21,474 nt of DNA from the NCBI GenBank assembly GCA_019057635.1, contig DXJL01000083.1:1-21474 (forward strand), given 5' to 3'. A program made the position numbers and the translations under genes. Source of the stretch: Candidatus Heimdallarchaeota archaeon (GTDB lineage: Archaea > Asgardarchaeota > Heimdallarchaeia > Hodarchaeales > Hodarchaeaceae). Position 1 is the stretch's first letter; every line of letters starts with the position of its first letter. This document shows positions 1,769 through 21,474 of this stretch, one piece after another. The notes beneath the pieces were generated by a model. That model worked only from the letters and a program-made list of their open reading frames with translations. It was not told the DNA's origin and searched no databases.

Positions 1769-2013
1769 CACTGAAAATTTTCCACCGATAATATTCGTAT
1801 TAATGCAAGCTTTCACCTTTTTAAGATTTACAATTTTTCTCCTAGAAGGATTGATTTTGATAGGAATTAATTTCTATATAATTGTTGCTTCTTTGTTATG
1901 GTTATACGCGGTATTGACACCGTTTCTTGCGGATAAATTCTCTAGTTGACAGGGATAAGGGAATGTATATTAAGTTCAATTCATCTACATGCCCTAAGAC
2001 GGATGCACCATTG

Positions 2014-2032
2014 ATTAGGAATCTGTCCTAAT
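2014..2032. promoter_or_regulatory. Inverted repeat in the divergent intergenic region, candidate TF site
   Basis: ATTAGGA-N5-TCCTAAT, perfect 7-bp arms, about 110 bp upstream of the giant gene's ATG. Confidence 0.35.
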
Positions 2033-2140
2033 TCCGAATATCGCAGCATCTTGACGAATTTCCATAATTAGATATATTCATAGTTGAGATTTCGGATTTA
2101 ATTTGATTCAAGTGATAAAAGTCTGTTGGAGATACAAATT

Positions 2141-5100: not shown

Positions 5101-8100
5101 CCAGACTGAAACTGTTGTGGAATTGAGAATCACTCAATTATATGCCGAGATTACCTATACAAGAGATAAGGATATATTTAACTTTCCATTATCATTAAAT
5201 CTTTATGATTCTGATTTAAAAACAGATGTTCAACCTGACGCTGACGATATTGCTTTTTACGATACAATAGGAAGGAAATTAGACCATGATTTGACGTTTG
5301 ATCAAAATTTCAATACAACTCACGCACATTTATCAGCCCACATCAATATCGCGAGAATTTCCATATCAAGTAACACCATTGTCTCAATGTATTACGGAAA
5401 TTCAACAATTGGTAATCAACAAAACCCAGATGCGGTGTGGGATGATCTCTACAGTGCAACATGGCATCTCGATGAGTCAAGTGGAGGAGTTGATGCTATA
5501 AAGGATGCTACTTCAAATAATAATCATGGTACTGACAATGGAACCCCAACCTTAGGTACATCAGGAGTGGTTGGACCCTCTATAGGTTTTGATGATGTTG
5601 ATGATTTTATAAACGTTACAGATGATTCGAGCCTTCGTTTCGACAAGTTTATCACTGCTTCTGCTTGGATTAATCCTGATGTTACAGACAAATGGCAAAC
5701 AATTCTTTCAAAAATGGATGGACAAACTGAACATCTATATTTTGTACTAGATAACACTAATCTCTACATAGGTTTAGATCCAATAAGAGTAGATTGGAAT
5801 ACTGGAATAAGCATCAGCAGTGGTACATGGCAACATGTCGCACTGACATATGATGGAGAAATCCTTAGAGTTTATAAGAATGGAGTATTGGGCGCATCAA
5901 CAATTGGTGAAGGAACATTATCATTAGAAAACAATAACCATTTACTACATATTGGTTATAATGAAGGCTGGACTGGTGAAAAATGGGATGGTTATCTTGA
6001 TGAAATTCGCCTCTCTAGAACTGCAAGAGCAATTGATTGGTTGAAATTAGCTTACCTAAACCAAATGCCTTCTAGTGCCTTGTTAACCATTAGTTCTGAA
6101 AATGACCATGCTACTCCAGTCATAAATGATTTTAGTACAGACGATCCTGGTGATGGTCAACCAACTTTTTGGGCAAACATTACTGATCACGATTCTTCTG
6201 TATTAAGCGTCACCCTAAGTTTAAATGGGACAGATCATCTGATGAGCCAAAACGGAAGCGGACTCTGGATTTATCAACCAATTGGGGTTTCATATGGAGA
6301 TTATTATGAATATCAGATAATTAATGCTTCAGATACTGTTGGAAATTACTTAACAATTGCTTCAATAGAGAAGAATATCACTTTTAATTACGATTCTGTT
6401 ATACCTGGTGTGATAGACTGGGAATATTATTCAGGAACTAAAGAATTTAAAGCAAATGTTTCTGACACTTGGGGAGTAATTGATACTGTAATAATAAATG
6501 TGACTTACCATGAAAACATGGCTGACACAAGCAGCCTTTGGGCTGTTATGCAGAATACAGCCTCTGGATTCATGAACGACACTATCATAATGATTGAGGG
6601 GACGATGAATTTTGTTATTACTCTTAACGATACATATGGAAATTCATTCACTTCATCAGAACATCCAGGATTTGTCGTAAACACACCACCAGAGGCATCC
6701 AATTTGAACTTGTCTCGGAATTCTTCCTCTATCTTGCTTCCAGTGACTAGTAATGACACCTTGTACTTTTTGTACAGTTACAGTGATGCTGAACTAGATC
6801 CCGAATCGGGATCAGTGATTCGGTGGGAAAAATGGAATGGTACACATTGGAATATTCAATCCGCTTATAATGATCTGAAAAATATCACAGCGGGAGTACT
6901 GACTCGTGACGATGTATGGCGGGTACAGTTTCAGCCTAATGATGGAAAAGACTTTGGTGATTGGTATGTTTCGGGTAATATCACTATTCAAAACACTGTT
7001 CCTATTGTTTTCAATGTTGAGATAAGTCCAAGTGTGCCTACAACAAATTCAACCTTAATCGTTGAATATAGCTGGTTAGATATTGATACTGGAGATATTG
7101 AGACTGGAAGTCAAATCAGATGGTACCGTGATAATGGAAATGGATCTGGTTTTCTCCTCCTTAATCAGTACAACGATTTGCTGCAGCTTCCAGAAAATGA
7201 GACCACAAAAGATGACCAATTTTATCTTACAATAACTCCTGGAGACGGAATCGGATTAGGAAATATATTCACCTCTGGAACCATAACTATCCTTAATACG
7301 CCTCCTACATTAATAGTTAAAATTAATGACAATACAGTGCCAGCAACAGTTGCTAATGACACAAATTTAGATGCTACATATCAATATTCAGATGTAGATG
7401 GAGATAACGAAACCAGTGCATCTCTAGAAATCCGCTGGTGGCGATTCAATTTGACAAGTGGGAAATTTGAGTCATTTGTCAATGGTACATTAACAGTGTC
7501 GTCTACCTCAACGAATACATCTGAATTATGGCGTGTAGACATGTGGATAAACGATGGGACAGATTATAGTGAATGGACTTCCTCTGCCACAATTAGTATC
7601 GGTGTTCAACCTAATCAGGCACCTAGCGCGCTACAAGTTAATTTAACTTCAAGTAATCCAGTAGCTGGAGGGTCATTATATGCAAATTATACTTATTTCG
7701 ATCCTGATGGCGACAGTGAATCTCTAACGTCTTTTCATTGGTATAAAAATGGAATTTATCAGCCCCAATTCGATGGTATTCGCAATCTTCTCACTGCTTC
7801 CCTGATAAAAGGTGATAATTGGACTGTAGAAGTTAGACCTCAAGATAATAAAAATGATTATGGAGAGTGGAATTCCAGTCTACCTATAAAGATTCTTAAT
7901 ACTGCTCCAGTAGTATTAACAGCGGAAATTTTTCCAGCTACAAATGTATATACCTCTAGTACATTATTAATAAACTATCAAGGAACTGACGTAGACGAGG
8001 ATAGTATTACTTTAATTTCTGTTGTGTGGATTAATGGTAGTCAAGAAATAGTGGGATTATATAATGAGACAGAAGTTCCTTCCACGTATTTAAAGAAGGG

Positions 8101-11100
8101 AGAGACGTGGAAATATGTACTTAGGATTTTTGATGGTACTGATTGGTCTGATAACAGAACCTCAGAAAATATCACGGTATTAAACTCTCTAATGTCGTTT
8201 GATAGTGTTTCATTAACAGGAGGAGCTGATACACTAGAGGATATTGGAATCGATTATTCTTACACAGATTTGGATAGTGATCTAATTAATTTGGGGCAAA
8301 CAAAGATAAATTGGACGATTGAGTATGCTTCTGGAGGTAATCTAACTGTTGATGGAGTATGGGCATTAAGTAATACGTACGTTGTTGCAGGTGATACTAT
8401 AACAGTAGAAATAACACCTCATGATGGAGAAAGTCTTGGTGTGACTTGGCAGCCGTATAGAACAAGATTGATAATAGGTAATGCCATTCCTACAATTTCA
8501 GGACAACCAAATATTCTAGGTCCTGATAATAGTACAGATTTTTACGCTTCTGATGAGCTTCATTTCAACTATACTGCTACTGATCCAGATTTTAGTGAAA
8601 GCAGTGCATTGTATAATATAGATTATGATCTTGATGGATATGTGGTAGGCGCAAAATATCGTTGGTACCGAAATGGTATCTTGGTATCTGAACTCAATAC
8701 ACCTATAGTACCAATAGCATATCTGGTACGTGGTGACGAGTGGAAAGCAAGTGTTAAACCACGCGACCGCTTCGGTGATTTTGGTTCGTGGGTAAATTCA
8801 ACAGTTATCATTATTACGAATAGTCGCCCTCTCATTAGTGAATTTCGTGAAACTAACTCTTACACAACTTCGGATATGAATCTTGATATTGAGTTTACTT
8901 ACTCGGATTATGATGGTGATCCTATCAATCTTTCAAACACAATTATTCAATGGTATAATTATAGTACTCTCATTGTGGGTACAGAAATTACGGTTATATC
9001 CACAGAACAGGTCGGGAATGAATATATTGTAATAATTCGCTTATTCTCGGATTACTACATTAGAGGAGACAATATCACGGTAGAAGTTCAACCACATGAT
9101 GGTACTGAATGGGCACTTCAATCAAATACGAGTTTTGACATAATTATTGGGAATGCGAGACCATTTGCCTTTAATGTAAACCTGAAGCCTAATGGAACTG
9201 ACACTTCAGCCTATACAACTGATAATCTAAATGTCTCTTGGTCATATTCAGATCCAGATAATGATCTTGAAGTGACATCTCTCGCAAAGATTATCTGGAA
9301 AAACAAGGGAATTCCTCAACCTATGTTTGAAAATCAGAGCTCGATTCTTTCAGATAATATTAATAAAGGTGACGTGTGGACAATTGAAATTTTTGTCTTT
9401 GATGGGATAGAATGGAGTAAAGACCCCAAAATATCTACCCCACTTATAGTAGAGAATACTCCTCCCATAATTATTTCAGTAGCAATAATAAGTGATAGTG
9501 GAAATACCTCTGAGACGTATGCTGATACGAATCTTGTGATTGATCTCTTTGATGGTGTTAATTACACTGATGTCGATGGTGATTTCATTTTATACTTTGG
9601 AACAATAACACGATGGTATAGAAATGGAGTCCATCAACCGAGCTATGATGATGCAAATCTTCTACCCAGTTCAGTTCTTTTCAAGGGTGATTATTGGTAT
9701 ATTGAAGTTCAAATTACTGATGACCTATTTGCATATTCATTAAATCAAACTTCGCAGAATATAACCATCGTAAATAAAGCCCCATCTGTTATTTCTGTTT
9801 CTCTTACTGGAAATGAATACACAGGATTTTTTGTAGAGAATGAGGATGTTAGTATCGCAATTTCTGTTTTGGATATAGATATAGGAGATTCTGAGCTATC
9901 TTATATCACTTGGACGGTGAATGGAGTGCCTAATTCACTTTATGATAACCTACGCACAATTCCTAAGAATGGAACCCAAGCTGGAGACACATGGAATGCG
10001 ACAATTTTAGCCTCGGATGGATATGATAATACTACCAGCCTGTTTTATTTTTCGTTATTTATTCAAAGCAGTCCAAAAATTCATAATTTCACGGCAAATG
10101 TAGTGGAAGAGGAAGTTGATGGAACTTTCGAAATTTCTATTGAAATGACAGATGCTTTGAATCACAATATCCTTCTCGGTAGATATGACGTGTATTTAAA
10201 CAAGTCAGGATCAATAGTCAAGACTGGCTTCTTAGAGGCTAATGCTACTCATTGGTTCTTTACATTCGACTTGCTAGATTACGCTGATGGGAGTTATTTC
10301 AACACATCAGCCGTTGTAACAATTACCGCACAATCTATTATCGGAGTAACTACTATTGAGTCATTTAACTTTACTTTGATCGATGGAGTTGCTCCAAAAA
10401 TCAAAACGACGGGCGGTTCTTCTGGAGTTTGGTTTGATAAAGATATTGAAACTAATCCTACAACCCTCACCTTCTACGCAGCCATTGAAGAATATGGGTC
10501 AGGTGTATCTAGTGTCCTCTTATACTACTATTTCAATCTCGTTGATGTTGAGGGTGAAGGATCTTCTATCTATCAAGAAGATGGTGATTTTTCCACAATT
10601 GAGATGACATATCTTAGAACCGATGGTGAAATACTAATTTATTCAGCCTCTGTTGACTATATTCAGGATGGAAATGATTATGAACCTCTGTTCTACGTTT
10701 CTACATCTGACAACGCAGGAAATAGTAATCCGAATGCGTTTGATATCAGAAATCATCCTGAAAGAATCGAACTTATTCCATATCAGCCCGAAGGGCTTCC
10801 CCCCGAGTTACTGTTAATTGCTGGTCTTGCCGTCTTTCTAATATTCATTGGAGCAATTGTCTATGTACGGTTCATACGAAAACCGGAGATTATTGGCTTA
10901 GATAAAGATTTAGTAATGACTGGAGTCCCCAAAATTGATGAAGAGGAAATAATTACTTCTATTGACCGTCACACTTTGGGCCTTGTAGTCAGTTTCTTCG
11001 ATCAGCTACATGGGCCTATTCCTATTATTGTCATCCCTGAGATGCTCAAAGATAATTATAGCAAATTAGTAGCACTTTCTGATCGTTCGTTCAGTGGTAC

Positions 11101-11461
11101 TGGGTTTAGTGACGACTTTGCAAGCGAGATTCCGTCTTCATACGATTTCGTACTTGCTGAACAACTAAGGATAAGTGTTATGAGTTTTGGATTTGCATTG
11201 GAGAAACCAGAAGCACGTGGCGGAAAAGAAAACCTCACTGTAAATATTCTCGTCCAAAAGGATATCTTTACTCTTATTGAGCAATTCAAAGATGAGATTC
11301 AAGGAAAAGTGCATGAATTCCATCTGACTATGGCAAAGGATTCTGGAAACAAGGTATTGATTCGCGTTAAAGCTAATGAAATCAGAAAATATGTCAGTGC
11401 TATAGTAATGAGCTATGTAAACATCTACGGAACTACTGACCTCATTGAAGAAGAAGATTGA
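2141..11461 (+). CDS. Giant single-pass cell-surface protein: signal/anchor, 3x (DUF2341 + LamG/concanavalin-like), Ig/cadherin-like stalk, TM helix, cytoplasmic longin (FLCN/SMCR8/NPRL2-like) domain
   Basis: Uninterrupted ORF; ATG at 2141 follows GGAG (the track uses TTG 2126). Hydrophobic N-terminus. DUF2341 motifs (RKNITID..FPVLV..DIMFTD..KLDHEIE..MYFGN). LamG motifs (WHHVAFTWD..LYIDG..DGKIDEARLS). TM LLLIAGLAVFLIFIGAIVYV followed by RFIRK, then a ~200-aa tail. Confidence 0.9.
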   Translation: MRIRIFQVQHVVLLTILTLNVFALMINFNSVLGGETEGFTTDLLRGLGVSTHDEDKTKSPIPRLTAEDLANYNEKNQISRFPVTTSKIANSFSLPTWGGAGFMFRKNITIDSSKVLANLNDFPVLVDLYGDKDLFGVRQSTGYDIMFTDASGNKLDHEIEIFEQEVPRLIAWVKTDLSSSTDTIISMYFGNDTIPNQANPTGVWANNYEGVYHLSEDPTGTIYDSTANTNDGSAAGSMTSSDQEEGIFDGSVDFDGSNDLINIGDVNSNSWTGITAQAWIFHDTTGDDRIICKSPSGVTSAHIISLAVVSSGSNDRMRVRLSTDGTGGSAAISRDSAMSFTTGTWHHVAFTWDSASERIYLYIDGSQDSNNYFKDGDSIDDSSLPVILANVNTGEDERYYDGKIDEARLSNVARSANWIGTEYNNQFSPYSFYSVGALEEPPSSELYRFRKDLVIDNTKVSGSSDLSQINVLFDIYDTDIHKDGRIQIGGNNLVFKNQGTDTELYYEIEEWNQLFNDTHAHLRVWVQVDTLYANIDTLITMYYGNQANFGYHQPDIVWSDYIGVWHLGDSVSDEGSAVNVHTDSTANINHGNQHGNDDTTGVIGNAQDFDGTNDYVEMGDIDILELSGGTFFTISGWFYRDSTSSTDVIIDKFHPRSPEYTGYTLYIDGSDGLLHIIVADDDDDGLHMTADIDFNAVPSDWYSFYITFDTGVNSDTSSWNIYINGVDNTSLREFYGAGASYSGNDDFSSPNNPKSFTIGAHANNTNFFDGKIDEIRFIEQELSFDRINTEYTNQYDPNSFYSVSTEVENTDWWLDESYGRKKDIIVDSQQLGQTDETVNVRPWAPGYTQTWNHYNRIGAVQDYLAIDEVEYDNDGTFIYTSVDASNRYSSYKLKGLQNEFDGSITSITLHSRARRRTVSGSGSVFSSNIRVFVRPATQNYYGSSQWASTGYNSFTDTWNTNPVTGQPWSWDDLSDLEIGVRGYIDYNQTETVVELRITQLYAEITYTRDKDIFNFPLSLNLYDSDLKTDVQPDADDIAFYDTIGRKLDHDLTFDQNFNTTHAHLSAHINIARISISSNTIVSMYYGNSTIGNQQNPDAVWDDLYSATWHLDESSGGVDAIKDATSNNNHGTDNGTPTLGTSGVVGPSIGFDDVDDFINVTDDSSLRFDKFITASAWINPDVTDKWQTILSKMDGQTEHLYFVLDNTNLYIGLDPIRVDWNTGISISSGTWQHVALTYDGEILRVYKNGVLGASTIGEGTLSLENNNHLLHIGYNEGWTGEKWDGYLDEIRLSRTARAIDWLKLAYLNQMPSSALLTISSENDHATPVINDFSTDDPGDGQPTFWANITDHDSSVLSVTLSLNGTDHLMSQNGSGLWIYQPIGVSYGDYYEYQIINASDTVGNYLTIASIEKNITFNYDSVIPGVIDWEYYSGTKEFKANVSDTWGVIDTVIINVTYHENMADTSSLWAVMQNTASGFMNDTIIMIEGTMNFVITLNDTYGNSFTSSEHPGFVVNTPPEASNLNLSRNSSSILLPVTSNDTLYFLYSYSDAELDPESGSVIRWEKWNGTHWNIQSAYNDLKNITAGVLTRDDVWRVQFQPNDGKDFGDWYVSGNITIQNTVPIVFNVEISPSVPTTNSTLIVEYSWLDIDTGDIETGSQIRWYRDNGNGSGFLLLNQYNDLLQLPENETTKDDQFYLTITPGDGIGLGNIFTSGTITILNTPPTLIVKINDNTVPATVANDTNLDATYQYSDVDGDNETSASLEIRWWRFNLTSGKFESFVNGTLTVSSTSTNTSELWRVDMWINDGTDYSEWTSSATISIGVQPNQAPSALQVNLTSSNPVAGGSLYANYTYFDPDGDSESLTSFHWYKNGIYQPQFDGIRNLLTASLIKGDNWTVEVRPQDNKNDYGEWNSSLPIKILNTAPVVLTAEIFPATNVYTSSTLLINYQGTDVDEDSITLISVVWINGSQEIVGLYNETEVPSTYLKKGETWKYVLRIFDGTDWSDNRTSENITVLNSLMSFDSVSLTGGADTLEDIGIDYSYTDLDSDLINLGQTKINWTIEYASGGNLTVDGVWALSNTYVVAGDTITVEITPHDGESLGVTWQPYRTRLIIGNAIPTISGQPNILGPDNSTDFYASDELHFNYTATDPDFSESSALYNIDYDLDGYVVGAKYRWYRNGILVSELNTPIVPIAYLVRGDEWKASVKPRDRFGDFGSWVNSTVIIITNSRPLISEFRETNSYTTSDMNLDIEFTYSDYDGDPINLSNTIIQWYNYSTLIVGTEITVISTEQVGNEYIVIIRLFSDYYIRGDNITVEVQPHDGTEWALQSNTSFDIIIGNARPFAFNVNLKPNGTDTSAYTTDNLNVSWSYSDPDNDLEVTSLAKIIWKNKGIPQPMFENQSSILSDNINKGDVWTIEIFVFDGIEWSKDPKISTPLIVENTPPIIISVAIISDSGNTSETYADTNLVIDLFDGVNYTDVDGDFILYFGTITRWYRNGVHQPSYDDANLLPSSVLFKGDYWYIEVQITDDLFAYSLNQTSQNITIVNKAPSVISVSLTGNEYTGFFVENEDVSIAISVLDIDIGDSELSYITWTVNGVPNSLYDNLRTIPKNGTQAGDTWNATILASDGYDNTTSLFYFSLFIQSSPKIHNFTANVVEEEVDGTFEISIEMTDALNHNILLGRYDVYLNKSGSIVKTGFLEANATHWFFTFDLLDYADGSYFNTSAVVTITAQSIIGVTTIESFNFTLIDGVAPKIKTTGGSSGVWFDKDIETNPTTLTFYAAIEEYGSGVSSVLLYYYFNLVDVEGEGSSIYQEDGDFSTIEMTYLRTDGEILIYSASVDYIQDGNDYEPLFYVSTSDNAGNSNPNAFDIRNHPERIELIPYQPEGLPPELLLIAGLAVFLIFIGAIVYVRFIRKPEIIGLDKDLVMTGVPKIDEEEIITSIDRHTLGLVVSFFDQLHGPIPIIVIPEMLKDNYSKLVALSDRSFSGTGFSDDFASEIPSSYDFVLAEQLRISVMSFGFALEKPEARGGKENLTVNILVQKDIFTLIEQFKDEIQGKVHEFHLTMAKDSGNKVLIRVKANEIRKYVSAIVMSYVNIYGTTDLIEEED
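2450..6100 (+). repeat. Three tandem DUF2341+LamG modules (about 2450-3457, 3479-4563, 4592-6100)
   Basis: Each repeats RK-I-ID/VD, MY(F/Y)GN, VW, (Y/W)HL, DST/DAT-N-N-G, FD---D-I/V and DG-(I/L)DE-R. Confidence 0.85.
6680..10066 (+). repeat. Eleven ~100-aa Ig-like/cadherin-like repeats
   Basis: Units start NTPP, NTVP, NTPP, NQAP, NTAP, NSLM, NAIP, NSRP, NARP, NTPP, NKAP. Consensus Y-Y-D-D-D-E...W...(K)GD-W...V-P-DG...W..S..I-I. Confidence 0.85.
10808..10867 (+). other. C-terminal transmembrane helix of the giant protein
   Basis: 20 hydrophobic residues followed by RFIRK (positive-inside rule), placing the tail in the cytoplasm. Confidence 0.9.
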
Positions 11462-11484: not shown

Positions 11485-13692
11485 CTAATCACTTTCAAGC
11501 AGTGAAAGGTACTGCATTAACTTCTGAGAAGTTTCCTCATCTTCTTTCACTTCTTTCTTCACTAAATCAACTTTTCGTGGGAATTTAGTATCTTTGGATT
11601 TGATCAAAGTCTTGATAATAATATCAATCATTCGTGCCGCAAAATCTACTGCACCTGCTGACTCTATAGGTAATTGCAAGGCTTGAGTTAGTAGTCCACT
11701 TAATTGGGCTTGACTAACAGTCTCAATGATATTAACTCCCCCAATCGGATGCCCACGTTGAACAAAATTAATAAGTACACCCCTCTTTTGAGTTTGCTCC
11801 ACGGAAAAACCTATTTGATCGGTGTCAGGGAGGATTACAAACTCACCATTTGTCTTAATTTCTAAAGGAATAAGATAATCAATTGTATCTAATAAACTTC
11901 CTTTCTCCACTACTATTCTGGGTGAAACGAGGGGTTGTTCTTTGAGTTTCTTGATAGTCTCGTAGATAACTCTCGCTGAGAAGGCCATAGAGGAGACCCC
12001 ATCTTCGAAATAACCAACATTCGCTAGATTCATTTCATAGGCGAGTAGATAGAGGATTTCATCTTGATTTATGCCAGTGGATACTTGAGAGCTTCCTATT
12101 AGCCCTTTCTTACCCGTATGATCCTGAAGAAACAGACTTACTTGAGCGTTTGAGGTATCCTCGATCAGTTCTACTTTGAAACTAATTCCTCTAGTACCCG
12201 GTAAAGTAATAGTACTATCTACGGCTTCTGTTTGTAGAGGAATCTCCATTGGAACAACTGTTGGCTTTTTCTTCACCTTTTCCTTTTCTTTTTTCTTTAT
12301 CTCTGGGGTTAGATATTTACTGACAATTTCATCAATAGCCATCTTAGGTCTTCCCACAGCGAAGACTAGACATTTAATAATCATTTCTTCATCAAGCTTA
12401 TTTTTGAGATGAGCAGAAAAGATATCAAGCAGTCTTTGACCTGTTAAATTTTTGAGTTTCTTTTCTCCTTCAGATGTTCTTACAATGGGAATGTATTTCA
12501 GAAAAACATCACTCAGTAAGGGAACTGGGATGCCTGAGGAAGCAGCAATTTTAAATAATTCACCATATCCTGATTTTACCACTTCAGTCGCTTCATCAGG
12601 CTCGATTCCACAAAATTCTACTAAATAAACAATTTGATTTACCACCTCTTCGGCTTGAGAGGGTGTTTCTAGTTCACTGACCTCTGGAGTCGTAACTAAT
12701 GGCCTTTCAGGTTCAGAGGAATCTGGCAATTCTGTTGGAGAGGACGAAATTTCCTGAGATATTGTTGGACTAGGGGGCATTTCTGAGGGTGTACTTGGTC
12801 GTTCAGCACTTGGTTGTACTGGTTTAACGGTTGGTGTTGTTTCTGCTTGTACAGGTATAGGTTTAGTTATCGATATGGGTGTTGAAGAAGGTGAGGTTGT
12901 GATTTCTTCTTCTGAACCTTCAGTTGCTTGTTGCATGAGTGATTGTAACCGTTGCAAGACAGCTGGATCACCAGCCATTTTCGGTGCAGTTATCTGAATT
13001 TTTGATTGCGAGGATGTCTTAACCTTAGCTTTCACTTTGCGTAGAGTCATTCCTTTCCCATGGTACTCCTCAATTTCACCAATAGCACGTTCATCAACAA
13101 AGTCGCTCTGGGCGATGTCTGGAACAGAAAGTTCGAAGATACGACCAAAAGAATCAATAACAGTCTCAGGTTTATAAATAGATGTTCTGAAGAAGCGAAG
13201 AGGTTCACTATATTCTAGTTGAAAGCTCTCTTTAAGTTGTGTGTGAATTGATTCATAATTGGGGGAACTACGCACAAGATCATTCTTATGCAAAAATACA
13301 AAGACTTCAGCTTCAGGGGAGTAGTTATATAATTTCTCAATAGATGCTTTAAAGTATTGAAAAGCGTTATTCCGAGTAGTTTTATTTGCTGTATCAATTA
13401 AAAAGATAAAGATCTTTACATTGCTAAATACAAAGGGACTGAAGGCATTTAAGAATTTTTTCAGAAAAATCTTCTGTCCACCCAAATCAACAATCGTGAT
13501 AGGAGTGTTTTTTATTGTGACTGATAAACGTTCATAGTTAATTGTTGCAGAAAGTTTGTCTACGTCTTCAGTACGTTGTTTTAAAAAGAAAATTCGTTTT
13601 ACTGCGGTTTTCCCTGCCTCAGAAAGGCCAGCAATAAGGATTTTGTGACCTAGACGCGATGAAATCTCTGATTCGGATACCCACTCTGACAT
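11485..13692 (-). CDS. Rag/Gtr1-like small GTPase with long C-terminal extension (Pro/Ser/Thr/Glu linker, helical region, duplicated domain)
   Basis: G1 GLSEAGKT, G2 ATINY, G3 DLGGQ, G4 HKND, G5 RTSIY. The HKxD and TSI motifs are Rag-type. The rest of the protein is unassigned. Confidence 0.85.
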   Translation of the reverse strand: MSEWVSESEISSRLGHKILIAGLSEAGKTAVKRIFFLKQRTEDVDKLSATINYERLSVTIKNTPITIVDLGGQKIFLKKFLNAFSPFVFSNVKIFIFLIDTANKTTRNNAFQYFKASIEKLYNYSPEAEVFVFLHKNDLVRSSPNYESIHTQLKESFQLEYSEPLRFFRTSIYKPETVIDSFGRIFELSVPDIAQSDFVDERAIGEIEEYHGKGMTLRKVKAKVKTSSQSKIQITAPKMAGDPAVLQRLQSLMQQATEGSEEEITTSPSSTPISITKPIPVQAETTPTVKPVQPSAERPSTPSEMPPSPTISQEISSSPTELPDSSEPERPLVTTPEVSELETPSQAEEVVNQIVYLVEFCGIEPDEATEVVKSGYGELFKIAASSGIPVPLLSDVFLKYIPIVRTSEGEKKLKNLTGQRLLDIFSAHLKNKLDEEMIIKCLVFAVGRPKMAIDEIVSKYLTPEIKKKEKEKVKKKPTVVPMEIPLQTEAVDSTITLPGTRGISFKVELIEDTSNAQVSLFLQDHTGKKGLIGSSQVSTGINQDEILYLLAYEMNLANVGYFEDGVSSMAFSARVIYETIKKLKEQPLVSPRIVVEKGSLLDTIDYLIPLEIKTNGEFVILPDTDQIGFSVEQTQKRGVLINFVQRGHPIGGVNIIETVSQAQLSGLLTQALQLPIESAGAVDFAARMIDIIIKTLIKSKDTKFPRKVDLVKKEVKEDEETSQKLMQYLSLLESD

Positions 13693-14009: not shown

Positions 14010-14906
14010 ATGTCTGGAACTACTGTATCAAAAATTTTGTTTATGGGTCTCGGTGCTAGCGGAAAAAGTAGCATCCGATCGATCGTATTTGAAGGCAAAT
14101 CCCTTGAGGATGTCAAGGATTATAATGCCACAATAAATTATACCCGTTCTACCCGAAATATTATTGATTCTGCCTTCCAGATATTCGACTGCGGAGGACA
14201 AGAATCTTTCATCTCAGTTTTTGTTGGAGACCAAGCTGAATTTATTTTTAGTGGTGTATCCATTCTTGTTTGGGTTGTAGATGTTTCCAATTTCGATGCT
14301 GTTTCTACATCCAAATTTTATTTTGATCATGCTGTAAATAGACTTCATGAGTTTTCTCCTGACGCTGTGATTTACTGCTTATTCCATAAGATCGATTTGC
14401 TTTTGCTAGATATGCGTGAACAAGTCATTGAGACATTGGAATCATTTTTCACAACAGATAAGGACATTCAAATTTTCTATCGTGGAACCTCAATATATGA
14501 TCACTCGACATTTGCCGTTGTGGGAGAGATGGTTCAAACGCTCATTACTAAAAGTAGTAAGGCGAAGACTGTCTCTGAGGCCCTTCAGGAATTTGTTAAG
14601 CAGAATGTGGAATTATCAGGCATTGCTATTTATTCAGAAGATGGGTTACCGGTTTTCGAAGAGGGCAACCTTGCGAATAAAATTATCCTTCCCGCTAACT
14701 TGTGGTTATCAAATTATGAACGTCTCAGAGGAGATTTTCCTGGAAATAACTTTAAAACCACTTTAGAAACCAATGATTATATGTTCGTCTTTCATCAATT
14801 AAAATCAGAAGTTCTTCTTGCTGGAATTGCCCGTAAAGTATCACCTCTTCAGTATGTACTGGTTAAAATGGATAATCTTGCAGAAATTGTCGGTGAGTTA
14901 TTATAA
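14010..14906 (+). CDS. RagA/Gtr1-like GTPase with C-terminal Roadblock/LC7 domain
   Basis: [42 protein letters not shown] and TSIYD closely follow RagA as recalled ([40 protein letters not shown], TSIWD). The C-terminal ~115 aa (14562-14903; [14 protein letters not shown]) is Roadblock-like. ATG 14010 with upstream GAGGA is preferred over GTG 13971. Confidence 0.92.
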   Translation: [298 protein letters not shown]

Positions 14907-14922
14907 GAATGAGATTGAGCTC

Positions 14923-15942
14923 TTAATCAAATTTCAATATTCCACTCTCTATATTGCTACCTGACATCACATTTGTTTGTATTGCAAGGTTTATTACTTC
15001 CTCAATAAATTTTAGAGAGAAGCCAACCTCAGAAGATAGTAACGTTAAATCAAGGTCTGATTTATTTTTAAATGCTGTCAATATCCGTTTTGCTAATAAT
15101 CCTCTAATTTTTTTTACGGGTAAAGACAAGAACTGGTCTAGTTCTTCGAAATCTAGCTTTCCTGAAAGTCTAAGCCGATATTGCAGGCCTAAATCCGATT
15201 GTGTTTCTAATCCAGATTTAGAGAGTAATTGCCTTCCCATGATTGGATCAGTCACCATTTCTAGCCGATAAAGGTTACCTCTAGGCATCTTCTTCTTAAA
15301 TTCATCCACTATTGTTCGTACTTTTGTTTTAACAAGGGGTGTTGGTTGATCACGAAAAATTACCTGAATTTGTTTCTTTTCTGAAACAACAAGTAAGATA
15401 GGTGCAGTATCTGGGATCATTGAAAGGTTTCCAAAAGCCTCAATTGTATTTGCCTCAGTTAAATAATACGCATCAATACCTCTATCTATGATCTGAATAT
15501 TTTGGTCAATTTTCTTTAAGATTTCTTCATCATAAAGATCTTTGTCACTTACAATATTATAAACGCGAAGAGTGCGTTTTATCATGAGCTTAAGGAATTC
15601 AGTATACTTACTTATGGAATTTGAAGTTGTTATGACCCAGAAAAAAATCATTCGACCGAATTGAGCAATTCTATTATCCATAGAATCTTTTGCGGATAAG
15701 GAAAACATGAAAGCTTCTGACACGTAGGGGTCTTTGGGAGTGGGGATTGGACCATAAGCACGCACTTCCATTGGACGAAAGGGAGTGCTAGTACCAATGG
15801 CGGTCAATGTCTTTATTGCCATGGTAAATGCTTCATCGTCAGCAAGAGGAGAAGAGTTGAAAATATTTCTGGGGCCTTCATCCTCGAAGACTGTCACTAT
15901 AAGTCCATCAGTCAATGATTTAGTTCTATCTTTTTTATTCAT
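14923..15942 (-). CDS. Soluble protein: N-terminal longin/uDENN-like domain, possible gelsolin-like middle domain, C-terminal PCI-like winged helix
   Basis: GLIVTVFEDEGPRNIF resembles the longin beta1-GP-beta2 hairpin. The C-terminus LDLTLLSSEVGFSLKFIEEVINLAIQTNVMSG..SGILKF has a wHTH pattern. ATG 15942 (MNKKD) is preferred over 15999. Confidence 0.6.
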   Translation of the reverse strand: MNKKDRTKSLTDGLIVTVFEDEGPRNIFNSSPLADDEAFTMAIKTLTAIGTSTPFRPMEVRAYGPIPTPKDPYVSEAFMFSLSAKDSMDNRIAQFGRMIFFWVITTSNSISKYTEFLKLMIKRTLRVYNIVSDKDLYDEEILKKIDQNIQIIDRGIDAYYLTEANTIEAFGNLSMIPDTAPILLVVSEKKQIQVIFRDQPTPLVKTKVRTIVDEFKKKMPRGNLYRLEMVTDPIMGRQLLSKSGLETQSDLGLQYRLRLSGKLDFEELDQFLSLPVKKIRGLLAKRILTAFKNKSDLDLTLLSSEVGFSLKFIEEVINLAIQTNVMSGSNIESGILKFD

Positions 15943-16461
15943 GACTAAATTTGTCAGACAACTCTTTAAAAAGAATTCTGGACAGGATGAGTTACACATC
16001 TACTATCTGGAAAAAATTAGCTCCCGAGGAGAGATAGCTTTCGAGGGACTGCTTGAAACAAGCCCACTAGCGATATCCCAAACACCAATGATCTTCCACC
16101 AGTTTTTACCATTCTTCTCTTACCTTTGACAGGTAACTCGTCTAACGTAGTTACAAGGGAATCTGGCTTATGAGCTAAGTGAATATTTTTTCATCACCTC
16201 AGGGTTGAAGAAGTGAGGGAAGGAGGACTTTCAAGGTTGTGAGAGAGAGAGGTAAACGAATGCGAGAAATATTCCTTTGTCGGCCAAAATTGATCATGTT
16301 TGAATGGCTTCCTAGAAATTTCGAGTCAGATTACTTGTTGGAGATTAGGCTTCTACTTAATTAATCATATTGAAAATTAATAAAAAATCCTAGACTTTCC
16401 TACCGCAGATGTCTTTTAATTACTAGTTTTTTCATATTTCTCTAGGATGATGAAAAGAATT

Positions 16462-17508
16462 TCATTTCAAAAAGTCCAATTTGACATGTTTTTTTACTAA
16501 TTCTTCGAGTAGGGTTATCTTTTTTGTCTCATCCTTGGTAAAGAGAATTTCCATATCATCAATTAGCTTAGCAACTGCGAAAGTATCATTAGTGGCGAGA
16601 AGGATTGGAATGTTTCTAGTATCTGCTTTAGATTGAATAATTGGGTCATCAGGAAGAATATTATTAGTAAGAACTATTCCTGATGTACTGGAGTCTAATG
16701 CAGCTGTAATCATATCAATTCGGTCTCCTGGTGTGATTATCAATTTATTTTCGTATTGCCACAGTGGCTTCGTTATCACCTGTGCAGCACTCATAGCCCC
16801 TACGAAGATATGATTGACTATATTCATTAATCCCCCCTCGCCTGCAATAATTTTTGTGAATAGCGTCTTATAAAGATAATCGATCGTAAAATGAGTTAGA
16901 TCTTCCTCATAAGGGATAATTCCTAAGACTGGTACTCCTAATTCATTAAAAATATCCATATGGAGATTCTTGAACTCCTCAATATCCTTAACTTGATTTA
17001 CAATAACACCTGCAAGATCACTCGAATCAGAGAGCACACAATTTCTCAGAAATGCAATCTCATCAACGATTTCACTGCCTTCACCGCTCAATATTAATAG
17101 CAGCTGAGCGCCTACATTCCTTGCAATGGTCATTGGATCTAAAAACACTGAGTGGCCAAAAGCCAGATTTCGTCCTCCCTCAATTAAAACAACGTCATGG
17201 TCTTTACTTACGCTATTGCAAATTTCTTTCAGTTTTTTACTAGTTGATTGTTCATCATACATGAAACGTAACTTATTATGGTCAAAGCCTAGTGAAATAT
17301 CCTCAGGTTTCTCTGTAAGACCTAAAATATTTGAAACTAAGGAGGCATCATAATCCCAGAGACGTTTCTTTTGATAAAGCAATCGGTCTCCCAAGGGTTT
17401 CATATACCCGCAAGAAATGTTTTTTTCTGAAAGAGCTTTTGCTATACCAATAATTATACTGGTTTTACCCGCTTCTTCATGAGTGGAAGCTACTACAATC
17501 CTTTTCAT
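16462..17508 (-). CDS. Phosphotransacetylase N-terminal-like protein (BioD-like/AAA_26 P-loop + DRTGG domain), no Pta catalytic domain
   Basis: ASTHEEAGKTS, GYMKPLG, VVLIEGG, GVIVNQV, PVLGIIP, VGAM and ITPGDRID motifs. SD AGGTGA overlaps the upstream stop codon. Confidence 0.88.
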   Translation of the reverse strand: MKRIVVASTHEEAGKTSIIIGIAKALSEKNISCGYMKPLGDRLLYQKKRLWDYDASLVSNILGLTEKPEDISLGFDHNKLRFMYDEQSTSKKLKEICNSVSKDHDVVLIEGGRNLAFGHSVFLDPMTIARNVGAQLLLILSGEGSEIVDEIAFLRNCVLSDSSDLAGVIVNQVKDIEEFKNLHMDIFNELGVPVLGIIPYEEDLTHFTIDYLYKTLFTKIIAGEGGLMNIVNHIFVGAMSAAQVITKPLWQYENKLIITPGDRIDMITAALDSSTSGIVLTNNILPDDPIIQSKADTRNIPILLATNDTFAVAKLIDDMEILFTKDETKKITLLEELVKKHVKLDFLK

Positions 17509-17514
17509 TTTTAT

Positions 17515-19677
17515 TCACCTTTGAGGATTTAACAATATACGAGTATCTACTGCTAGTACTCCTTGATTCTGTTCAAATACTAAAACTGGGTTAATTTCGA
17601 TATCAGATATATCTTTACATAGCTGAATGATTTTACTTAGCCGGAGGATGATGTCAATACATCCTCCAATATCTTTAGCTGCCTCTCCTCTCACTCCTAG
17701 TAGCAATGGATATGAACGTATTTGTTGGATCATTTCAATAGCATCAGATCGTTTAACAGGAACTGCTCTAAATGCAACGTCCTTTAAAACTTCTACATAG
17801 ATCCCACCTAAACCAAACATAACCGTGGGCCCAAATGTATTATCAATCCTTGCTCCGATGATAGTTTCCATTGCTTCATCCATATTGATCATTCTGACAA
17901 TTTCCACTCCCTCAATTTTTGCATCAGGCTTATATTTTCGTGCGGAGGCGAGAATAGCTTCGTAGGCATCCAGAAGCTCTTTTCGATTCTCTAAATTAAG
18001 TGCTACACCACCAGCATCCGATTTGTGAATAATATCCTTCGACACAATTTTCATGACTACTGGATATTTAACTACTTCTTCTGCATAATGAATTACTTCT
18101 TCTAGATCTTTTGCTACATAACTCTTAGGCGTTGGAATTCCAGCTGCATCCATGACTCTCAAAGCTTCGGGAACAAGGAGAAACCGTCTATTATCCTTCT
18201 TTACCTCATCAATAACTTCTTGTATGGAAGCAATATCTATTTCTGGCTCATCAAATCCTGAAACTTCGTCTTCAGTGTCAAGTATATTGTGATAATGTTT
18301 ATACAAGGCCCCTAAACAGCTTGCCGCTTCATAAACGTCAGAAAAGATAGGAACACCCTTAGATTTTAATAAAAATAATCCCTTCTCAAATTCTCCTCCT
18401 CCAAAGAAAGAAAAAACAACTGGTTTATTTGGCTTGTTGTCTAAATATTTCTTTTGAACTACTGCGGCTAATTGATCAGCGGAAAAAATGGCGGTTTCAC
18501 AACCGAGGACAATCACAGAATGAATATCAGGGCTATCTAGGGCAGCTTGGAGAGCTTGTTCATAGATCTCACTGGTACCTTGTCCCGTAATGTCCACAGG
18601 ATTTTTAGTAGAACCAAAAGAGGGTGTGACAGGAGAAAAAATCTTTTTTAAAACATCACGATCATCATAAAGAGTTACACCATACAACTCACACGCGTCA
18701 GTGGCAAGCACTCCTATTCCACCTCCGTTGGTTACAATGACTGCATTCTCCCCAGTAGGAAGGCTTTTTTGGATAGCAAGGAATTTTGCCCAATTTAACG
18801 CCTCTTGGACACTTAGAGCACGGAGCGCACCTACTTGTCGTGCAATTATATCAGTGAAGACATTATCAGCTCCAGCCAACGATCCAGTATGGGAAGCAGC
18901 TGCCATGGCACCGCGTTTAGATCGACCAGATTTAATGATAATGACAGGTTTTATTTTTGTTGCACTTTCAAGGACATTAGTCAATCTATCCCCATGTTTA
19001 ATTCCCTCTATATATAACAGAATGACTTTGGTATTGTCATCTGTAATGAAATATTCAATCAAGTCCGATTCGTCAATATCACACTTATTACCGACAGAAA
19101 CAATAGCTGATAGACCGATTCCCTCAGTAACAGTTTTACCGATCATTGCTATGCCAAGAGCTCCTGACTGTGTAACTATTGCTACTGATCCATGTTCGAT
19201 ATGTTTATATCCAAATGTAGCATTCACAGGTGCTTTTGCAGAGAAAATTCCAAAAATATTTGGACCAAGAATTCGCATTCCATTCTTTCTGGCAAACTTG
19301 ACTAATTCTTCTTCTTCCTCAATATTCCCAACTTCAGAGAATCCACTTGTAATTATTGAGATGAACTTAGTTCTCTTTTTTGCACAACTTTGTAGTGTGT
19401 CAAAAACATATTTTGCTGGAACACATATCGTAGCGAGATCAATTTCATCATCTATTGCTTCTATTGAATCGTAAACTTTGCATCCGAGAATTTCTCCTCC
19501 CTTAGGATTCACTGGATAAATATTTCCTTGATACTCTGATGCTACAATATTATCGACTACTTTATAGCCAATCTTATTTTGATTCGATGATGCACCGATT
19601 ATTGCAATTGATTTCGGTTCAAATAAATGCTTTATATGAGGAGCGTTGATTTTTGGCATACGATACTTGTTCTCCAT
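17515..19677 (-). CDS. acdAB: ADP-forming acetate/acyl-CoA ligase, fused alpha-beta (ACD family)
   Basis: CoA-binding PKSIAIIGAS and YPVNP; GPN; TQSGA; SVGN; phospho-His motif AASHTGSLAG; TNGGG; NPVD; ATP-grasp YPVVMK..HKSDAGGV, FGPTVMFGLGGIYVEVLKD and EINP. Confidence 0.92.
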   Translation of the reverse strand: MENKYRMPKINAPHIKHLFEPKSIAIIGASSNQNKIGYKVVDNIVASEYQGNIYPVNPKGGEILGCKVYDSIEAIDDEIDLATICVPAKYVFDTLQSCAKKRTKFISIITSGFSEVGNIEEEEELVKFARKNGMRILGPNIFGIFSAKAPVNATFGYKHIEHGSVAIVTQSGALGIAMIGKTVTEGIGLSAIVSVGNKCDIDESDLIEYFITDDNTKVILLYIEGIKHGDRLTNVLESATKIKPVIIIKSGRSKRGAMAAASHTGSLAGADNVFTDIIARQVGALRALSVQEALNWAKFLAIQKSLPTGENAVIVTNGGGIGVLATDACELYGVTLYDDRDVLKKIFSPVTPSFGSTKNPVDITGQGTSEIYEQALQAALDSPDIHSVIVLGCETAIFSADQLAAVVQKKYLDNKPNKPVVFSFFGGGEFEKGLFLLKSKGVPIFSDVYEAASCLGALYKHYHNILDTEDEVSGFDEPEIDIASIQEVIDEVKKDNRRFLLVPEALRVMDAAGIPTPKSYVAKDLEEVIHYAEEVVKYPVVMKIVSKDIIHKSDAGGVALNLENRKELLDAYEAILASARKYKPDAKIEGVEIVRMINMDEAMETIIGARIDNTFGPTVMFGLGGIYVEVLKDVAFRAVPVKRSDAIEMIQQIRSYPLLLGVRGEAAKDIGGCIDIILRLSKIIQLCKDISDIEINPVLVFEQNQGVLAVDTRILLNPQR

Positions 19678-19818
19678 GACCTACAGCAATTGGATCAAGA
19701 ATTTTTTAATTCTATGTAAATATAAGCAGTTATAATTTGGTTTTGCTTCTTTTATAATATTAATTATCTTCTAGTAATATCCCTTAGACTGGTGAAAAAA
19801 GAAGTTCTATTATAAGTG

Positions 19819-21474
19819 TTAAAAAGTCATCCGTAGCTCGTAAACCCCTTCAGTAAGTCGTTTATCTAGGTTAGGAAATAATTTCTCAAATAGAGCGAGC
19901 ATACCTCTGTTTTCTAACAATACTTCGGCACTAAAGCCTAGTAAACCTGCAGATTTAGCGAGATAAGTAAGATATTTCATTAATTCGGTTCCCACACCTT
20001 TCCGATGATAATCATCTCTTACCACAAAAGCAGCTTCAGCTGTATGGGAATGTTGATCGATTCCATATTGACCTACACCAACAATCTCTTGTGAAATGCC
20101 TTTAGATACTACAGCAAGGACTATCATCTCTGTTGAAAAATCGATGATACAAAAATCTTGAAGTCTTGAATGTGGTAAATCTTTTCTAACACTCATAAAT
20201 CGACGATAAAGAGATTGATCAGACAAATCGTAGAAGAAATCCTTTAATAGTGGCTCATCACTAATTTTGACTGGACGAAGCATGATTTCAAGACCGTCTG
20301 TAGTAGTACGCCAAGTTTCCAAGTGTTCAGGATATTCCCCTTTTTTACCAGGGATAAATGCTTGATCTTTGAAAATTAAATTTTCTTTTTTTGCTTCCTT
20401 AATTAGTTGTGATTTGAAACGAGGATGAGCAATAGAAATTAATTGCATGGCACGTTCACGAATGTTTTTACCATGCAAATAACAAATACCAAATTCGGTG
20501 ATCACGTAATGAATATCTCCTCGATTAAGGGTAACACCAGCCCCTTCAGTTAAAAATGGGACTATCCTTGAAGTTTCCCCATTATCCGCAGTGGACTGAA
20601 TTGTGAGTATAGACTTACCCTTATTAGCAAGAATTGCTCCTCGCATGAAATCAGCTTGGCCTCCAATACCTGAATAAAAAATTTTACCAATGGATTCAGA
20701 AGAAGCCTGTCCTGTTAAATCTATTTGCAGTCCACTGTTAATGGCAGTCATATTATCATGTTGGGCAATTGTTAACGGATCATTAGTATACTCGATTCGA
20801 CGCAGTTCAATGGAGGGATTGTCATGAATAAAATCGTATGTCGATTGGGAACCCATGCAAAAGGATGCTACTGATTTTCCACGATTGATAGATTTTTTTG
20901 TATTATCTATGACACCTAATTTCATTAACTGAACGAGACCATCGCTTACGAGTTCAGTATGAACACCTAGATGCTTTTTATCTTTTAAATTCGCCATCAC
21001 AGCATTCGGTATACTCCCGTAACCAACTTGTATCGTATCTCCATCTTGAATTAAACGAGATACATATTGACCAATTTTATTTGCTACATCGTCACTTGCA
21101 GGTTCCTGCTTGTACTCCAATATAGACTCATCATAAGGTAGAATATAGTCAATATCCTTCACATGTAAAAATCCATCTCCATGGACACGGGGGACATTTT
21201 TATTCATCTGGGCAATGACAATACCAGCATTCTCGATCGCAGCCTTGACAATATCGACAGAAACACCCAAACTTACATAACCGTGATCATCAGGTGGAGT
21301 AACTTGGATCAGAGCGACATCTATTGGTACAAGACCGCTGTAAAATATACTGGGTGTTTTTGAAAGAAAAATTGGCGTATAATCAGAAAGGCCACTATTA
21401 ACAGCCTCCCGAGTAGAATTTGCAACAAAAAATGAGTTGAGTCTAAAGTTTATTTGATAAGCAGCATCTGTATA
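19819..21474 (-). CDS. Acetyl-CoA hydrolase/CoA-transferase (4-hydroxybutyrate CoA-transferase-like) fused to a C-terminal GNAT domain; 5' end lies outside the window
   Basis: The frame is open from the right edge (YTDAAYQINFRLNSFFV...DYTPIFLS...PPDDHGYVSLGVS), so the track's start at 21270 is an artefact. Motifs: TIQVGYGSIP, LGVHTE, QIDLTGQ, SGIGGQADF, VITEFG. GNAT: SLYRRF, AEAAFVVRDDYHRKGVGT, N-GM. Confidence 0.9.
   Translation of the reverse strand, partial: YTDAAYQINFRLNSFFVANSTREAVNSGLSDYTPIFLSKTPSIFYSGLVPIDVALIQVTPPDDHGYVSLGVSVDIVKAAIENAGIVIAQMNKNVPRVHGDGFLHVKDIDYILPYDESILEYKQEPASDDVANKIGQYVSRLIQDGDTIQVGYGSIPNAVMANLKDKKHLGVHTELVSDGLVQLMKLGVIDNTKKSINRGKSVASFCMGSQSTYDFIHDNPSIELRRIEYTNDPLTIAQHDNMTAINSGLQIDLTGQASSESIGKIFYSGIGGQADFMRGAILANKGKSILTIQSTADNGETSRIVPFLTEGAGVTLNRGDIHYVITEFGICYLHGKNIRERAMQLISIAHPRFKSQLIKEAKKENLIFKDQAFIPGKKGEYPEHLETWRTTTDGLEIMLRPVKISDEPLLKDFFYDLSDQSLYRRFMSVRKDLPHSRLQDFCIIDFSTEMIVLAVVSKGISQEIVGVGQYGIDQHSHTAEAAFVVRDDYHRKGVGTELMKYLTYLAKSAGLLGFSAEVLLENRGMLALFEKLFPNLDKRLTEGVYELRMTF

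Follow-up and report, generated by a model that had tools for sequence, protein, structure and literature searches.

The subject of this analysis is a gene on the minus strand of a 21,474-nucleotide stretch of DNA (the window) from the Candidatus Heimdallarchaeota archaeon genome GCA_019057635.1 (contig DXJL01000083.1; genome G000 below). We consider it moderately probable that, in Asgard archaea of the Hodarchaeales type, its 339-residue product (the target protein) acts as the soluble longin subunit, of the kind found in GTPase-activating proteins (GAPs), of a switch built on Rag-type GTPases. The evidence comes from the predicted fold of the N-terminal domain, from a glycine-proline (GP) motif and an arginine that are invariant in the family, from the conserved adjacency of a RagA/Gtr1-like GTPase gene and from natural gene fusions.

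Longin domain

The target protein was modelled with AlphaFold2 on a 17-sequence alignment, giving a mean predicted local distance difference test score (pLDDT) of 79 and a predicted template modelling score (pTM) of 0.51. The model was compared with about 48,000 PDB representatives by VIA-align and, in addition, by Foldseek; all structural statements made here rest on predicted models. Residue numbers refer to the 339-residue protein, and the coordinates of the features are collected in Table 1. Residues 6-155 fold as a longin. The best match in VIA-align is 8yqg_B, from the longin dimer of a Lokiarchaeal Roadblock-Longin protein (Z 10.4 over 137 residues, root mean square deviation (rmsd) 3.2), followed by the Lst4 longin 4zy8_C (Z 10.1), the folliculin complex chain 6nzd_H (Z 10.0), C9orf72-SMCR8 (7o2w_A, Z 9.8), longins of AP complexes (Z about 9) and GATOR1 (8fw5_B, Z 8.8), and Foldseek returns the same longin families. 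A preliminary description of this DNA, made from its sequence, had regarded the N-terminal 150 residues or so as longin-like, and the model and both comparisons agree with it.

The GP motif ends the stretch LIVTVFEDEGP (residues 14-24, positions 15903-15871) and stands at the β1-β2 turn, where the strand formed by residues 23-29 starts. Across 47 aligned homologues (17-53% identity), no columns are invariant other than G23, P24, G64, D89 and R91; G13, D21, P67 and G96 are nearly so. Section 2.4 of a published paper (Traffic 2025, PMC12290439) locates the GP motif at this same turn in FLCN, NPRL2, SMCR8 and C9orf72 and reports it missing from FNIP2, NPRL3, adaptins, TRAPP and DENND proteins. 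The same section describes the combination of GP with a conserved arginine between β4 and β5 as specific to GAP longins and not present in adaptins, TRAPP or DENND proteins.

An arginine of this kind is present in the target protein. The β4-β5 loop, FMFSLSAKDSMDNRIAQFGR, covers residues 78-97, and R91 (codon 15670-15672) lies in the model between strands 4 and 5 (residues 74-83 and 97-105, respectively). The arginine finger of SMCR8, R147, which has been equated with R164 of FLCN, sits in the longin βL4-βL5 loop (bioRxiv 10.1101/2020.04.16.045708), and R91 appears to occupy a topologically equivalent place in our model, the equivalence being one of topology and not of residue-level superposition. 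The preliminary description had noted that this loop has arginines but no ARG motif. This is literally true, but it passes over the fact that D89 and R91 are invariant in the same β4-β5 connection. The two arginines whose conservation it had proposed to check also differ, since R91 is invariant in all 47 homologues whereas R97, although invariant in the 17 orthologues, is conserved in less than 90% of the larger set. Judged from GP and R91, the target longin looks like the catalytic GAP type represented by folliculin, NPRL2 and SMCR8 and not like the silent partners of the FNIP/NPRL3 type.

Longins of the AP, TRAPP and Mon1-Ccz1 complexes are also found among the fold matches (Z 8-9.5), and most dimers of longin and roadblock domains are described as serving as platforms or guanine nucleotide exchange factors (PMC10933270). 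The target protein could accordingly be imagined as a platform or exchange factor resembling Ragulator, Mon1-Ccz1 or TRAPP, which would locate the Rags or promote nucleotide exchange and not hydrolysis. However, the best fold matches are longins of the GAP type, and GP together with the β4-β5 arginine is reported as a property of GAP longins (PMC12290439, section 2.4); we regard a platform or exchange function as improbable.

Linkage to Rag-type GTPases

The target gene faces, tail to tail, the gene of a RagA/Gtr1-like GTPase (the short Rag), whose product is 298-311 residues long depending on the start used; its orthologues begin near the internal ATG. The short Rag matches Pfam Gtr1_RagA (E 9e-37), and its profile matches yeast Gtr1 with E 5e-35 over Gtr1 residues 3-283, which extends from the G domain into the roadblock part, as against 1.7e-16 for RagC. 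It keeps the glutamine of the DxxGQ motif, and this residue, Q64, is invariant.

A RagA-like gene is convergent with and adjacent to the target gene in 16 of 18 genomes, the remaining two loci being cut by contig ends, and the tail-to-tail arrangement is kept down to about 43% identity (loci L004 and L005). These genomes are relatives, so the counts are not independent. In one protein of the representative library, P0094 (597 residues), a longin, a gelsolin-like domain and a Rag GTPase (Gtr1_RagA, residues 286-473) are united in a single chain, with a C-terminal extension that may be roadblock-like. On contig C12 of G000 itself, a 271-residue protein with a GP-longin and a gelsolin-like domain is encoded 4 nucleotides upstream of a Rag-like GTPase. 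The conserved synteny and the P0094 fusion, both read from sequence, support a tie between the target protein and the adjacent Rag-type GTPase. For comparison, small GTPase genes of MK-D1 are described as generally not lying in operons with roadblock or longin genes (Tran et al. 2024, PMC10933270). When the target protein was modelled in complex with the short Rag, GTP and Mg, the scores were 0.00 and 0.01 (mark 0.32); the prediction was run without controls and says nothing about binding either way.

Divergent from the short Rag lies the gene of a second, much longer Rag-type protein (the long Rag), which adjoins the short Rag at 12 of 17 loci. The long Rag is nearer to RagA (5.5e-19) than to RagC (4e-5), and the name 'RagC-like' for this 735-residue GTPase was dropped because it is closer to RagA/Gtr1. 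Its G domain is followed by a linker rich in proline, serine and threonine and, at the end, by about 250 residues of no assigned fold; residues 346-473 weakly match the NCBIfam model of GatE (E 2e-5), far below the cut-off. The counterpart of the long Rag in L004 has just 235 residues. In addition, two more Rag-like genes lie within 7 kb in a second module on contig C12 of G000 (about 1856-9902, part of it in L008).

Receptor tail and natural longin fusions

The gene of a 3111-residue surface protein (2126-11461, plus strand) ends beyond the long Rag and is convergent with it. The protein has an N-terminal signal-like segment, long extracellular repeats and one transmembrane segment near its end, followed by a cytoplasmic tail that resembles a GAP-type longin. 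The preliminary description had drawn a parallel between LIVTVFEDEGP and a motif of this tail, and the tail does carry LVVSFFDQLHGP and EARGG. Searches of the tail with profiles of the target family (hhalign and hidden Markov model searches) gave nothing meaningful; the two are therefore taken as different longin families, and a close paralogy between tail and target protein was no longer considered.

A link between the two longins came from a phmmer search with the tail, which found P0049, a 340-residue Promethearchaeota protein. Residues 3-143 of P0049 are a longin of the target type (target query 28-171, E 5.8e-11), and residues 144-338 match the receptor tail (E 1e-50) in a stretch that takes in both HGP and EARxG. 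The two types are fused in the same way in P0096. A model of P0049 built from its alignment contains two longin domains (pLDDT 84.6, pTM 0.59). In its tail-type half (residues 169-325), GP is found at the β1-β2 turn and an arginine in the β4-β5 loop, and the fold matches are 8yqg_B (Z 13.4), 6nzd_H of the folliculin complex (Z 12.2), C9orf72-SMCR8 (Z 11.3), Lst4 (Z 11.2) and GATOR1 (Z 10.4). We make no claim on the relative packing of the two longins, given the pTM of 0.59 and tri-longin proteins that align only at an rmsd of 15-16 Å. The link between the target protein and the receptor tail nevertheless gains independent support from this fusion.

Many giant proteins end in a domain of the tail type. 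They are encoded in 19 of 21 genomes of the group to which G000 belongs, each of the 19 having between 1 and at least 8 copies (G000 only 2), and the longest open frame reaches 10,431 residues. A tail-type receptor gene flanks the longin/Rag cluster in nine of 16 genomes, in one of them as a fragmented gene, and lies 6.4 kb from it in one further genome. In the other six, no tail-type gene was seen in the flanks covered; three of these clusters are on contigs shorter than 10 kb, and L004 lacks such a gene in the 8 kb covered on each side. The receptor-flanking genomes are related, and the counts overstate their independence, the positive cases falling into about five clades of the tree. The preliminary description had proposed that the target protein is either the partner of the receptor tail, in a role like that of NPRL2/3 or FNIP, or a second GAP for the adjacent Rag protein. 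The synteny and P0094 support a tie to the Rag, and P0049 and the nine flanking receptor genes a link to the tail, but a silent role of the FNIP/NPRL3 type is not the better reading, because D89 and R91 are invariant and GP is present.

Such a role is nevertheless the main rival of a catalytic one. Here the target protein would be a non-catalytic partner in the manner of FNIP, NPRL3 or C9orf72, R91 would be structural and the tail longin would supply the finger from its A-R-G loop. The loop of the receptor tail has this form, the tail-type longin matches folliculin more strongly (Z 12.2-13.4) than does the target protein (Z about 10), and both types are joined in P0049. The numbers, with 1 to at least 8 tail-type domains per genome against one or two full-length target genes, are also as expected of a shared partner, and C9orf72 is described as having GP without donating a finger (PMC12290439, section 2.4). 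However, the same source reports that FNIP2 and NPRL3 lack GP, and D89 and R91 are invariant in all 47 homologues, including Rag-fused or operon-linked forms without a nearby tail-type domain (P0094 and contig C12). Moreover, the covered flanks of six of the 16 genomes, L004 among them, contain no tail-type gene. We judge the non-catalytic role to be somewhat unlikely.

Other arrangements of receptor genes were observed at single loci. In genomes G069 (L051, 11109-16999, minus strand) and G070 (L052, 2-6093, plus strand), a second RagA-like gene follows a giant tail-type receptor gene after 54 nucleotides on the same strand, and this unit is about 2-3 kb from the pair of target and short Rag genes. 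In G073 (L055, 2487-4401, plus strand), the tail-type receptor gene by the Rag cluster is broken into three consecutive open reading frames (ORFs) in different frames, and at a second locus of G061 (L043, 6622-6879, plus strand) there is only a C-terminal receptor fragment with one TGA inside the match. The broken genes of G073 and G061 could reflect assembly error or decay.

Gelsolin-like and winged-helix domains

The preliminary description saw the target protein as a longin followed by a C-terminal winged helix. Both domains are present, but a gelsolin-like domain between them (residues 154-249) had been overlooked. By VIA-align it matches the Thorarchaeota gelsolin ProGel (7c2f_D, Z 8.8, 87 of 88 residues, rmsd 3.0), adseverin (5a1k_B, Z 8.4) and gelsolin G3 (Z 7.2), and the top match in Foldseek is 7c2f_B, again ProGel (E 7.7e-4). 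The profile of the 47-member family (A2) also reaches ProGel by sequence, with a borderline E of 0.0012. Pfam gelsolin finds no match in the target protein, and it does not appear among the families listed for the 47 members.

Beyond a linker of low confidence, the third domain consists of a long helix and a winged helix resembling those of PCI domains, so that the PCI-like or winged helix-turn-helix (wHTH) character assigned to the C-terminus earlier holds at the level of fold. Its closest match is the PCI-like winged helix of UFL1/DDRGK1 (8b9x_B, Z 9.7 over 65 residues, rmsd 2.0), followed by 8c0d_E (Z 8.8) and 22mm_a, from a 26S proteasome entry (Z 6.8). Pfam PCI is found only in a paralogue on contig C120 of G000, with a score below threshold (18.2 bits where 22 are required, E 0.0029). 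Shorter relatives retain the longin and gelsolin-like domains and have no winged helix.

The two domains are also the ground for a further explanation, according to which the target protein is an effector of the Rags whose longin reads their nucleotide state, and whose gelsolin-like domain acts on actin or whose winged helix acts on DNA or another protein. The gelsolin-like fold, the borderline sequence match to the actin-binding Asgard ProGel and the likeness of the winged helix to protein-binding modules of the PCI type would fit this. However, all 47 members are without a Pfam gelsolin match, no actin or cytoskeletal gene was identified among the scanned neighbours, and the loss of the winged helix from shorter relatives implies that this domain is not the core of the function. 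We consider an effector role highly improbable; the gelsolin-like and winged-helix domains may instead provide adaptor surfaces for a GAP subunit.

Gene, family distribution and other genes of the window

The open frame of the target gene extends over 14923..15999 on the minus strand, and ATG 15942 is its second ATG. Because homologues of 337-352 residues begin at this second ATG in the alignments, we take the gene to be 14923-15942 including the stop codon. Read from the sequence, the TATA-like TTTTTAAA at 15965-15972 is a possible archaeal TATA box, the promoter of a leaderless mRNA, and it fits a start at 15942; the window is AT-rich (GC 0.33-0.40). On re-reading, the gene coordinates in the preliminary description, its LIVTVFEDEGP and loop sequences, the codons of R91 and R97 and its C-terminal region (14926-15065, residues 293-339) are all correct.

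No Pfam or NCBIfam family matches the target protein at E <= 0.1. A set of 5.8 billion proteins contains 27 homologues with E <= 0.001, named in their sources as hypothetical proteins of Hodarchaeales, Kariarchaeaceae or Thorarchaeota, and the representative library gives 68 matches; the 17 orthologues share 45 invariant columns. In the ESM Atlas the best scores, which serve as leads only, are 0.89, to Promethearchaeota clusters. No RNA sequencing runs are listed as containing the locus. From the sequence comparisons, the target is a genuine conserved gene of a Hodarchaeales-type Asgard archaeon and not a chance ORF.

When 400 genomes of the phylum were searched, the full-length family turned up in 18, all of one family-level group and G000 among them, whereas other groups had shorter forms without the winged helix. 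There are one or two full-length copies per genome, with two in seven of the 18 (at most five candidates being scored per genome). Six proteins of the wider longin family are encoded in G000, among them a full-length paralogue with 41% identity to the target protein on contig C120 (10614-11618; L012 7988-9028, plus strand). No Rag gene is found within the 10 kb covered around this paralogue. A gene for a PadR-type regulator lies directly downstream of it, and the window likewise has a PadR gene at 793-1140. In L005 (4769-6910, plus strand) and L047 (7609-9774, plus strand), tandem copies of the target gene, 52% identical, stand ahead of one short Rag. An obligate heterodimer of two ancient paralogues was considered and rejected, since the backbone of the tree does not resolve, both groups occur by RagA-like genes, and only seven of the 18 genomes have two copies. 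Duplication of whole modules fits better.

Upstream of the target gene, the region 16462-21474 of the window (minus strand) begins with a 348-residue AAA_26 and DRTGG protein, and a DRTGG gene lies upstream in L003 too. It is followed by two large ORFs whose sequences suggest an ADP-forming acetyl-CoA synthetase and an acetyl-CoA hydrolase/transferase that ends in an acetyltransferase part.

Table 1. Coordinates in the window of the target gene, its domains and motifs, and the neighbouring Rag and receptor features
Feature	Position	Strand	Basis and remarks
Target gene, 339-residue longin / gelsolin-like / winged-helix protein	14923..15942	-	Stop codon 14923-14925, start ATG 15942; ORF and homologue alignment
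Domain 1, residues 6-155, longin resembling the GAP type (β-β-α-β-β-β-α)	15478..15927	-	AlphaFold2 model, pLDDT 75-90; VIA-align
GP motif G23-P24, β1-β2 turn	15871..15876	-	Invariant in 17/17 orthologues and 47/47 homologues
D89-N90-R91, with candidate arginine finger R91 in the β4-β5 connection	15670..15678	-	D89 and R91 invariant in 47/47
R97 (within G96-R97), start of β5	15652..15654	-	Invariant in 17 orthologues, conserved in <90% of the 47 homologues
Domain 2, residues 154-249, gelsolin-like α/β	15196..15483	-	VIA-align, Foldseek, profile
Linker of low confidence, residues 247-264	15151..15204	-	pLDDT <50
Domain 3, residues 265-339, long helix and PCI-like winged helix	14926..15150	-	VIA-align
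TATA-like TTTTTAAA	15965..15972	-	About 26 nt 5' of ATG 15942; read from the sequence
Short Rag, RagA/Gtr1-like GTPase with C-terminal roadblock-type region	14010..14906	+	Convergent with the target gene, 16-nt gap; listed ORF starts at GTG 13971
Long Rag, 735 residues, N-terminal Rag/Gtr-type G domain	11485..13692	-	Divergent from the short Rag; Pfam Gtr1_RagA E 8e-31
Cytoplasmic tail of the 3111-residue surface protein, second GAP-type longin with HGP and EARGG	10871..11458	+	Sequence; fold of the homologue P0049

Proposed mechanism

To our knowledge, all known longin GAPs act as longin-longin dimers. What we infer for the target protein from its fold, motifs, conservation, linkage and fusions is a mechanism with binding, dimerisation and GAP activity as its steps. 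Its longin would dock on the nucleotide pocket of the RagA/Gtr1-like neighbour, and perhaps also on that of the long Rag, and would stimulate GTP hydrolysis with R91 as arginine finger. It would work as a longin-longin dimer, formed with itself, with a paralogue or with the longin of a receptor tail.

Several observations weigh against this mechanism. Pfam finds no family in the target protein, and profiles of its family searched against solved structures match no folliculin, NPRL2, SMCR8 or other longin chain, the only near-significant match being ProGel. R91 is always accompanied by D89, so a structural salt bridge is possible, and the loop has the form D-x-R...G-R, unlike the A-R-G form of the receptor tail. 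The target gene and the short Rag are convergent and therefore not co-transcribed, and four second copies (on C120 of G000 and in G058, G067 and G073) have no Rag gene within at least 3 kb. As regards the receptor, the pTM of the P0049 model leaves the packing of its two longins without a confident prediction, and the occurrence of up to at least eight tail-type receptors in a genome makes chance adjacency to the cluster somewhat likelier.

A wider scheme can be built upon this mechanism, in which the locus would belong to a forerunner of the folliculin/GATOR1-Rag system that is coupled to receptors. Receptors with tail longins, up to at least eight per genome, would then all share the target protein, and the resulting two-longin GAPs would set the state of the Rag pair according to extracellular encounters, with the signal running from the surface inwards and the gelsolin-like domain passing it on to actin. 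We consider the scheme as a whole quite unlikely.

Significance

The longin GAPs of eukaryotes (folliculin, GATOR1 and C9orf72-SMCR8) control growth signalling at the lysosome together with Rag GTPases. The target protein is a candidate component of a pre-eukaryotic Rag switch. The locus names candidate partners of Asgard GP longins that can be tested, namely the RagA/Gtr1-like GTPase lying tail to tail with the target gene in every testable genome, the second Rag and the receptor-tail longin of the same class. The architecture of longin, gelsolin-like domain and winged helix is reminiscent of NPRL2/3, and it hints at a connection with actin. Should GAP activity and pairing with receptors prove true, the longin-Rag switch would be older than eukaryotes and would have been wired first to surface receptors and not to an internal organelle.

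Comparison with known systems

NPRL2/NPRL3 (Npr2/Npr3), as part of GATOR1/SEACIT, is the GAP for RagA/Gtr1. The target protein recalls it in having a longin first, a short middle and a C-terminal winged helix, and the neighbouring GTPase is likewise of the RagA/Gtr1 type. The parallel, drawn already in the preliminary description, matches the account of Npr2/Npr3 in which the longin is followed by a shortened middle region and, at the C-terminus, a wHTH triad (Zhang et al. 2012, PMC3521125), and NPRL2 is described as bearing both GP and an arginine finger (PMC12290439, section 2.4). However, the target protein has one winged helix in place of the triad and a middle that is gelsolin-like, the GATOR1 fold match covers its longin only (8fw5_B, model residues 10-153), and the Pfam families NPR2 and NPR3 are found neither in the target protein (E <= 0.1) nor among the 25 families listed for the 47 members (E <= 1).

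Longins with a GP motif, of the 'FLCN/SMCR8 type', have been published for Heimdallarchaeia, with their GTPase partner left as an open question (Traffic 2025, PMC12290439), and 'NPRL2-like longins' and longin-Rag fusions in Asgard archaea have been reported by Liu et al. (bioRxiv 10.1101/2020.10.19.343400). To judge by these accounts, the target longin is of the same kind, with GP and a conserved arginine in the same structural arrangement; what it adds is the architecture of longin, gelsolin-like domain and winged helix, the fixed Rag neighbourhood and a possible partner in the receptor tail. We found no description in the literature of this architecture, of the fixed RagA-like adjacency or of the pairing with a receptor tail, the 15 examples given in PMC12290439 being covered by the text of that paper and not by sequence.

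The middle domain aligns with 87 of the 88 ProGel residues (Z 8.8; profile E 0.0012). Compared with ProGel and eukaryotic gelsolin, it is embedded in a putative regulator of GTPases, with a borderline sequence match and no Pfam gelsolin. The Lokiarchaeal Roadblock-Longin protein 8yqg, a solved Asgard longin dimer, is the best structural match of both longin types (Z 10.4 for the target and 13.4 for the tail type) at 14-16% identity, and it has a roadblock domain in front, unlike the target protein. We found no published paper on PDB 8yqg or 9m28.

With folliculin-FNIP and C9orf72-SMCR8 the target protein shares the longin fold (Z about 10; 6nzd_H and 7o2w_A). These GAPs pair two different longins, and here a similar pairing is suggested by the P0049 fusion and by gene neighbourhood. 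GP is described in both subunits of C9orf72-SMCR8 (PMC12290439), as it is found in both the target protein and the receptor tail. As regards the DENN domain of these GAPs, none aligns after the target longin among the listed fold matches to their chains, which cover the longin part (6nzd_H, residues 11-153), and residues 154-249 match gelsolin folds instead. The loop that carries the candidate finger is D-x-R...G-R and not A-R-G, and one of the two longins is here the tail of a membrane receptor.

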